DNA of 64,000 nucleotides from an uncultured Bacteroidales bacterium (GTDB taxonomy: Bacteria; Bacteroidota; Bacteroidia; Bacteroidales; Bacteroidaceae), in contig CAWBPN010000001.1 in NCBI GenBank assembly GCA_963790715.1, positions 11,902 to 75,901 of the forward strand, written 5' to 3'. Made by a program: the position numbers and the translations under genes. Positions 39,447 to 39,661 of this stretch are shown here, in pieces; position 1 is the first letter of the stretch; every line of letters starts with the position of its first letter. Under the pieces are notes generated by a model. It was given only the letters and a program-made list of their open reading frames with translations, had not been told where the DNA came from and did no database searches.

Positions 39447-39661
39447 TTGTACTTTTTTCTTTGTGTGAACAAAGAAAAAGCTACGAAAAAAGAAAATCAC
39501 CGACTGTACCTCGCAGGCTATTCCGAACTTGCTCTTCACTAAAATAAATAACGCGCGCTTCGCGCTTAAACGGGGATTTATTTTTTAACGTTCATCGCAC
39601 GTTCTCCATTTTACACCTGCTCGCTAATGTCGGAATTTAACTCAATACCTTCCGACTGATG
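39447..39661 (-). repeat. R repeat copy 4 (full)
   Basis: Collinear with copy 1. It abuts the stop codon of the small ORF at 39662. Confidence 0.9.

Follow-up and report, generated by a model that had tools for sequence, protein, structure and literature searches.

A repeated, covariation-supported structured spacer in a toxin-antitoxin array next to a Bacteroidales capsule operon, with features of a terminator and a promoter

The 64,000-nucleotide (nt) stretch analysed here (hereafter the window, with 1-based positions) is derived from contig CAWBPN010000001.1 of an uncultured Bacteroidales bacterium of the family Bacteroidaceae (GenBank assembly GCA_963790715.1; positions 11,902 to 75,901 of the forward strand), and it contains an array of gene cassettes at whose boundaries copies of a composite spacer module of ~310 nt, referred to below as R, are located. 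An original prediction, made from the DNA letters of this stretch, had flagged a nested stem-loop at 39541-39586, within the fourth copy of R, as being selected for its pairing. This stem-loop is found to be the tip (helices P4-P6) of a 134-nt imperfect hairpin (P1-P6; the rod), which constitutes a covariation-supported structured element that is not in Rfam. With moderate confidence, and from sequence features, we consider that R probably serves as a terminator-plus-promoter spacer, which would insulate the toxin-antitoxin cassettes as well as the promoter of the capsule operon beginning with upxY, and which would have been multiplied by recombination between its copies.

A map of the window based upon BLAST revealed ten copies or fragments of R within 35.7-49 kb, which are numbered R1 to R10. 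Five of these (R1, R2, R4, R6 and R8) are full copies, four of the ten are incomplete, being truncated at differing points, and the repeats in the array are 90-97% identical. The core sequence of copy 4, AAAATAAATAACGCGCGCTTCGCGCTTAAACGGGGATTTATTTT, was located at 39541-39584, and a degenerate 44-nt pattern of this core matched the plus strand at five positions (35901, 36998, 39541, 41048, and 44647) as against 0.00 matches expected from 100 shuffles. About 30 related copies, which fall into five sequence types (A-E), were recovered from metagenome contigs. The parts of copy 4 upon which the following description is based are listed below.

39500-39633, minus strand: full rod of R4 (P1-P6), a 134-nt imperfect hairpin with P1 being CCGAC/GUCGG, as determined by RNAalifold and pair counts
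39537-39590, minus strand: rod tip P4-P6 and the first U-tract, AUUUAUUUUAG; it includes the flagged 39541-39586
39485-39499, minus strand: second U-tract, UGAUUUUCUUUUUUC, after the GC-rich base helix P1
39449-39484, minus strand: P7, an AT-rich palindrome or hairpin, CUUUUUCUUUGU-ucac-ACAAAGAAAAAAG, corresponding to the left-arm hairpin noticed originally
39409-39416, minus strand: -7 box TATCTTTG, 32 nt past P7 and ahead of an antitoxin/YoeB cassette (39332 down to 38767)
39629-39656, minus strand: hairpin GUCGGAA-N14-UUCCGAC of type A copies, the 3' strand of which doubles as the 5' strand of P1

The structural alignment with homologs that had been proposed as a check of the flagged stem-loop was constructed for 17 sequences representing types A-E. 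Its RNAalifold consensus fold consists of one nested rod, P1-P6, plus the separate hairpin P7, and 16 of its 49 pairs show compensatory double changes. In the named structure 96.4% of the cells pair, in comparison to 35-48% when the 3' partners were slid; the slid controls contained 0-4 covarying pairs as against the 16 observed, and none of 500 shuffles matched the observed values. The claim of a nested stem-loop was thus sound, but it described a part of a far larger structure, as the sequences flanking the tip are paired in the helices P1 (CCGRC/GYCGG), P2 and P3, all of which are strongly supported by covariation (e.g., GCAGGU/GCCUGC vs GUAAAC/GUUUAC vs GGAGC/GCUCC). These helices pair across the first U-tract, and the second U-tract then follows. 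The scan with Rfam covariance models that had also been suggested was negative: with Rfam 15, no match reaching the gathering score was found in the window or in four of the related contigs (L027, L034, L037, and L041), and at E<=5 the sole match in 35.5-49.2 kb was to the unrelated AniS (E=1).

Within the tip, P4 corresponds to the outer AU-rich stem and P6 to the inner hairpin (GCGC/GCGC in copy 4), with P5 between them. By pair counts P4 is 98.9% paired and P6 is 90.9% paired, each containing two covarying pairs. The arms of P4 read AAAAUAAAU/AUUUAUUUU in type A, AAAACAAUUU/AAAUUGUUUU in type B, GAAACGAAC/GUUCGUUUU in types C/D, and ...AAAC/GUUU... in type E, and across these types four of its pairs are compensated and none is broken. 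In P6, for which the originally proposed register was used, the two covarying pairs involve changes of C:G to U:A (L029) and of G:C to A:U (R1 and type B). Together with the G·U intermediates on the minus strand, these changes uphold the view that the stem-loop is selected for pairing. The quoted sequences and inner-hairpin variants were likewise recovered in copies 1, 2, 4, 6, 8, and 9; the inner hairpin is GCGCGCTTCGCGC in copies 4, 6, and 8, GCGCACTTCGTGC in copy 1, GCGCACTTTGCGC in copy 2, and GCGCACTACGTGC in copy 9. The outer stem had been ascribed to all of copies 1-8; it is present in copies 1, 2, 4, 6, and 8, but the core is deleted from R3 and R5, and R7 retains the left arm only. 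Copy 9 does possess complementary outer arms (AAAACAATTT/AAATTGTTTT), as had been stated for this diverged copy, but it is inverted in orientation and ~76% identical. In type E, 2 nt are lost on either side of the loop and the hairpin is retained. A 5-bp alternative register of the inner hairpin was rejected, as it lacks covariation and was equalled by 388-449 of 500 shuffles. Similarly, an ‘antiterminator’ helix (AACGUGCG/CGCGCGUU) suggested by a single-sequence fold is 86% paired, is broken in types B, C, and D, and shows no covariation. The right-arm hairpin GTCGGAA-N14-TTCCGAC, also described originally, occurs six times (0 expected) but it is restricted to type A, and because its 3' strand is the 5' strand of the conserved P1, it competes with P1 and the two are mutually exclusive.

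The pairing of the rod is strongly asymmetric with respect to strand. Every intermediate variant forms a G·U pair when read on the gene-sense strand of types A, C, D, and E, whereas it would be A·C on the opposite strand, and structure-wide there are 67 G·U cells vs 8 A·C cells. The consensus folds with an energy of -29.6 kcal/mol when taken on the gene-sense-like strand as compared to -20.7 on the other, and the rods of all 17 sequences are more stable on the former, by a mean of 10.5 kcal/mol. This bias favours a folded RNA, or a single folded DNA strand, over a duplex-DNA site. The original prediction of selection on folded RNA or single-stranded DNA fits the rod. In P7, no strand bias is seen (4 G·U vs 4 A·C cells), and P7 may thus act as DNA.

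Two U-tracts are associated with the rod. The first of these, UUUAUUUUAG, comes after the tip and was flagged in a terminator scan, in which GCGCGAAGCGCGC followed by GTTATTTATT was detected on the minus strand of four copies (2, 4, 6, and 8); in the region as a whole 26 terminator-like sites were found vs 12.0 +/- 3.4 expected. The second, UUUUCUUUUUU, lies 3 nt past the GC-rich base helix P1, and its T positions, as well as the TTTTAG motif, are invariant in 17/17 sequences. The rod of copy 4 starts ~30 nt past a stop codon. R thus carries, on the predicted transcribed strand, the GC-rich stem-loop and immediate U-tract by which Rho-independent terminators are recognized, and the earlier suggestion of an intrinsic terminator on the minus strand is consistent with the hairpin and U-run being on the gene-sense strand, after stop codons and with a -7 box next. 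R resembles Rho-independent terminators (including bidirectional and tandem ones) in its GC-rich helix with an immediate U-tract, in an A-rich 5' flank that permits both directions, and in its placement after stop codons and before the next promoter. It differs from them in that its rod is 134 nt long, comprises six helices and two nested U-tract signals, and shows cross-lineage covariation, and in that the rod belongs to a ~310-nt module, of which a promoter box also forms part and whose repeats are 90-97% identical. An independent small-RNA gene was rejected as an explanation, as no conserved promoter box precedes the rod on the strand that folds.

P7 is the most conserved block of R and is 94.5% paired by pair counts. 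The left-arm hairpin CTTTGT-gtga-ACAAAG of the earlier account is seen in all copies that retain the left arm, as had been claimed, but it lacks the strand bias of the rod. In types C and D the stem of P7 has undergone a symmetric expansion of 2+2 nt, by which its dyad symmetry is kept. The motif TAnnTTTG is the consensus of the Bacteroidetes -7 box, as established for Bacteroides promoters. In 19 copies TAnnTTTG is found 29-33 nt past P7, and these boxes belong to at least three unrelated classes of downstream sequence (TATCTTTG, TACATTTG, and TATATTTG). In the window the same spacing of 29-33 nt is also observed at 35770-35777, 36869-36876, 40105-40112, 40916-40923, and 43804-43811. TAnnTTTG is additionally present ahead of other genes of the island, e.g., that for an HU-HIG protein (46260-46267) and a helix-turn-helix (HTH) gene (41536-41543).

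The properties of P7 bear upon an alternative in which the palindromes act as double-stranded DNA (as the site for a dimeric regulator or for a nucleoid protein, e.g., HU-HIG), or R is a selfish repeat comparable to REP/BIME or Correia elements, with its folding being incidental. Such an explanation is in keeping with the strong conservation of P7 in the absence of strand bias, the survival of its dyad symmetry in types C and D, its fixed distance from the -7 box (as for an operator or activator site), and the 92% conservation of R9 between genomes whose neighbouring genes have diverged. A role of P7 at the DNA level is plausible. For R as a whole, however, we regard this explanation as very unlikely, as pairing in the rod is kept while its sequence changes (16 compensated pairs) and the strong G·U vs A·C asymmetry is not expected from a duplex-DNA site. 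Correia and REP/BIME elements, too, are palindromic repeats of intergenic regions with the ability to end transcription, to provide promoters and to fold into RNA hairpins, but they are short, dispersed in genomes, and accompanied by terminal repeats, target duplications or RAYT transposases, whereas R is limited to a single island and shows none of these. A miniature inverted-repeat transposable element was rejected upon the same grounds, as terminal inverted repeats and target duplications are lacking and all recovered copies are from one island type.

The U-tracts that follow the helices, the position of R after stop codons and the -7 boxes form the basis on which R is read as a terminator-then-promoter spacer. 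By this mechanism, read-through RNA from the upstream cassette (minus strand) would fold into the imperfect hairpin P1-P6. The tip P4-P6 followed by UUUAUUUU, and the GC-rich base P1 (CCGRC/GYCGG) followed by UUUUCUUUUUU, would then provide two nested Rho-independent terminator signals to stop transcription from the upstream cassette, and the mRNA from that cassette may, in addition, gain protection of its 3' end from the hairpin. The conserved AT-rich P7 and, 29-33 nt further on, the -7 box come next, and at this box transcription of the next cassette would restart, which in the case of R1 would be the upxY-upxZ capsule operon. The copies of R would have increased in number, lost parts and been rearranged through homologous or illegitimate recombination with one another, without a dedicated site-specific recombinase. 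The remaining copies of R in the window are as follows.

35770-36036, minus strand: R1; rod 35860-35993, core 35901-35944, P7 35809-35844, -7 box TACATTTG at 35770-35777
36864-37133, minus strand: R2; rod 36957-37090, core 36998-37041, -7 box TATATTTG at 36869-36876
38567-38704, minus strand: R3; left arm and right-arm end kept, rod deleted
40103-40302, minus strand: R5; rod tip missing (68 nt deleted), ahead of the MNT nucleotidyltransferase gene (39776-40099)
40914-41183, minus strand: R6; rod 41007-41140, core 41048-41091, ahead of the second antitoxin/YoeB cassette
43798-43874, minus strand: R7; P7 and promoter part only, flanked by the muramidase stop codon and the third antitoxin gene
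44513-44782, minus strand: R8; rod 44606-44739, core 44647-44690, directly upstream of the muramidase gene (43880-44506)
45006-45241, plus strand: R9; type B, inverted, rod 45050-45184, P7 45200-45236
48907-48950, minus strand: R10; right-flank fragment only, flanked by the AbiEii stop codon and the DUF3987 gene

The genes of the array are on the minus strand. R1 is located directly upstream of upxY (35043-35582), encoding a protein with a NusG domain, which together with upxZ (34524-34997) forms the first genes of a Bacteroidales capsule operon. Above R1 are found three YoeB/antitoxin pairs, the MNT nucleotidyltransferase, HTH/HipA and AbiEi genes, the gene for an N-acetylmuramidase (43880-44506) and a 108-amino acid (aa) open reading frame (ORF); further along are those for the HU-HIG protein (45588-46232) and a DUF3987 primase-like protein (46330-48753). 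The cassettes are of the YoeB/antitoxin, MNT, HipA/HTH, AbiE, and HigBA types. By this layout R occupies the gaps between cassettes, after one gene set and before the next. In the transcribed leader, the ops element of UpxY comprises a hairpin and a pause site, and the latter is followed by the upxY start codon at a distance of 9 to 111 nt (PMC11685472); an identity of R1 with this element or leader was rejected, as R1 ends >225 nt upstream of the upxY start codon and is upstream of the -7 box at 35770-35777.

Several other characteristics of this region may be recorded. A 35-aa hydrophobic ORF (39662-39769, minus strand) follows the MNT nucleotidyltransferase gene and ends 5 nt before R4, and at its counterpart position in contig L023 there is a 114-aa ORF that appears, as judged by eye alone, to be HEPN-like. 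The C-terminus of HU-HIG is a Gly/Ser/Thr-rich tail (GGSTTGGNGG...) derived from tandem 24-nt repeats (45616-45791). Loss of the rod tip has been observed repeatedly (38567-38704, 40103-40302, L023 706-860, L025 678-809, and L033 2653-2808); no fewer than four distinct endpoints are represented among the deletions in these five copies, none of which has lost P7 or the promoter part, and in L025 the copy that immediately precedes upxY is the rod-less one. Upstream of the type C copy in L041 is a 450-nt spacer (5256-5700) of degenerate AAGCAAGC / GCGAAGC repeats, and similar leaders rich in AAGCAAGC are seen after R copies that precede muramidase genes.

The small, mostly toxin-antitoxin cassettes separated by repeats of 90-97% identity are suggestive of another explanation, namely that R is an attC-like site, of which one folded DNA strand would be used by a recombinase encoded elsewhere for the capture and excision of cassettes, as in integrons or rAID-1 clusters. 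The attC repeats of the Vibrio cholerae chromosomal integron also separate arrays of small cassettes, many of them toxin-antitoxin, and are near-identical imperfect palindromes (~60-140 nt) with a preference for one-strand folding and a cassette content that varies between strains. Cassette content varies among the contigs related to the window as well, and the bulged rod is within the ~57-141 nt range of attC palindromes, with one-strand asymmetry in 17/17 sequences; single-stranded DNA, when folded, likewise accommodates G·T pairs. We nevertheless consider this explanation to be unlikely. Pfam scans of the ORFs in 33-64 kb (1-33 kb being outside the scan) and of selected ORFs from related loci detected no recombinase, integrase or tyrosine recombinase; an IS66 element is present at 55.0-57.6 kb. 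No nearby intI is present, no RYYYAAC...GTTRRRY pair exists in 35700-49000 on either strand, and the base of the rod is instead CCGRC/GYCGG. Precise site-specific exchange would also not yield the truncated copies (4/10, at differing points) or the gene fragments that are co-duplicated with R (repeat families D7 and D9), and the U-tracts and promoter box in each copy are not needed by attC sites. In the absence of core sites and an integrase, R was rejected as an integron attC. The rAID-1 clusters of Bacteroidales are gene arrays with repetitive intergenic sequences ‘reminiscent of integrons’ and they are defined by a 5' XerD-like recombinase (>=44% identity to BF9343_RS08045) and interbacterial immunity genes (Ross et al., bioRxiv 10.1101/471110). 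This assignment was also rejected, as no Phage_integrase or Xer-type domain was found in the ORFs flanking the array, and its cassettes encode YoeB, HipA, MNT, AbiE, and HigBA rather than immunity genes.

The truncated copies, the co-duplicated gene fragments and the lack of a recombinase point instead to growth of the array by recombination between R copies. Contig L025 represents a strain variant with the same upxY (96.7% identity), a shorter array and different cassettes, and on this basis the content of the array appears to turn over between strains. Separately, the 3' end of the 108-aa ORF is duplicated in the array with 97% identity (41331-41494 vs 45234-45397), and the 3' end of the DUF3987 gene (43140-43248 vs 46325-46433; 81%) is duplicated and fused to the end of a YoeB-like ORF (43148-43477). 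The IS66-family element (a TnpB-like protein and a DDE transposase; 55008-57642) adjoins the tail of a second polysaccharide locus (57659-64000), which contains glycosyltransferases and a UDP-glucose dehydrogenase fragment.

The related copies were obtained in two ways. Scanning metagenomes with a left-arm anchor that does not overlap the flagged core identified 12 contigs with ~25 copies. Contigs containing muramidase homologues, which share a conserved module (DUF4248 / HU-HIG-orf~101-spacer-muramidase-DUF3987), gave more diverged copies belonging to type C (L041), type D (L043), and type E (L044). Every recovered copy is confined to one type of island. A scan of genome contigs with AAAAGCTACNAAAAAAGAAAAT gave only chance matches from unrelated taxa, this A-rich pattern being a poor query; BLAST searches of plasmids and phages and a scan of viral contigs gave no match to R, and exact-protein look-ups for UpxY and YoeB returned no record. 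No described equivalent of R was found in literature searches.

R9 and R8 form a long inverted repeat (arms ~170-230 nt, loop ~290 nt) around a second element, E2, and this pair is relevant to a further explanation, in which R, and especially R9/R8, would regulate the capsule locus in cis, as an RNA or DNA element. In Porphyromonas gingivalis a 77-bp inverted repeat (77bpIR) at the 5' end of the capsule operon and an HU protein control the progress of RNA polymerase along the operon; this element shares a transcript with the capsule genes and terminates an antisense RNA, asSuGR (PMC8757827). The layout seen here is similar to this in that a long inverted repeat, the transcript of which would form a hairpin, is located 5' of a Bacteroidales capsule operon (upxY/upxZ) and just downstream of the HU-HIG gene. 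The inverted pair is also conserved in L025, L028, L033, and L045, and the type B copies fold best on the antisense strand. It is, nonetheless, quite unlikely that R functions in this manner, as R is multi-copy and most of its copies are solitary and ahead of unrelated toxin-antitoxin cassettes, no plus-strand -7 box that could serve as an antisense promoter was found between R8 and R9, the loop in which an antisense RNA like asSuGR would start, and L027, L041, and L043 contain a single copy of R. That the segment between R8 and R9 is an invertible promoter, as in Bacteroides DNA inversion switches, was rejected, as R8-E2-R9 is colinear in the four contigs with the inverted pair and no recombinase was found.

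E2 itself is a conserved non-coding element of ~125 nt, directly upstream of muramidase genes. It is present twice in the window (44795-44928 and 41195-41323, both minus strand) and also in L027 (1727-1860), L034 (369-501), L037 (1902-2033), and L045 (5095-5224). Its fold (-29.8 kcal/mol) is closed by the stem UGCCGRUGC/GCAUCGGCA, inside which lies the helix ACAACCA/UGGUUNGU. Only three compensated pairs are present in E2, and it has no match in Rfam. A -7 box, TACTTTTG, is present upstream of E2 at 44996-45003 on the minus strand, and due to this E2 may be a structure of a 5' untranslated region.

Some observations weigh against a terminator-plus-promoter function for R. The six-helix rod of 134 nt is conserved across lineages and goes far beyond what termination needs. 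In R8, which precedes the muramidase gene, P7 is not followed by a -7 box. The type B copies (R9 and those in L027 and L045) are oriented oppositely to the flanking genes and fold best on what is there the antisense strand, and no -7 box was found that could drive an antisense transcript through them. Additionally, R9 is 91.7% identical over 230 nt to L027 1497-1725, and the repeat is far more conserved than what surrounds it: for the HU-HIG, orf~101 and muramidase proteins on its flanks the identities are only 35%, 37%, and 61%, respectively, and the flanking coding DNA shows patchy alignment only (~74-75%). This conservation suggests a sequence-level constraint or lateral spread beyond a structural role.

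The over-built hairpin and the 92% conservation between diverged genomes could make R more than a terminator. R may be the expression and recombination scaffold of an undescribed cassette-capture system of environmental Bacteroidales with no linked integrase, which we view as improbable; the hairpin would then be the substrate of an unlinked or unknown enzyme, possibly from the module of the DUF3987 primase-like, HU-HIG and muramidase proteins, and each captured cassette would arrive with a terminator and a promoter built in. If, on the other hand, R is a terminator-plus-promoter spacer, the array would be an insulated and modular one, in which each toxin-antitoxin or defence cassette as well as the capsule operon is placed behind the same terminator-plus-promoter unit, and it would represent an integron-like layout without an integron. 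Interactions of Bacteroidales with phages and hosts depend to a major extent on capsule loci, and the R arrays provide a testable case of repeat-driven cassette turnover beside such loci.
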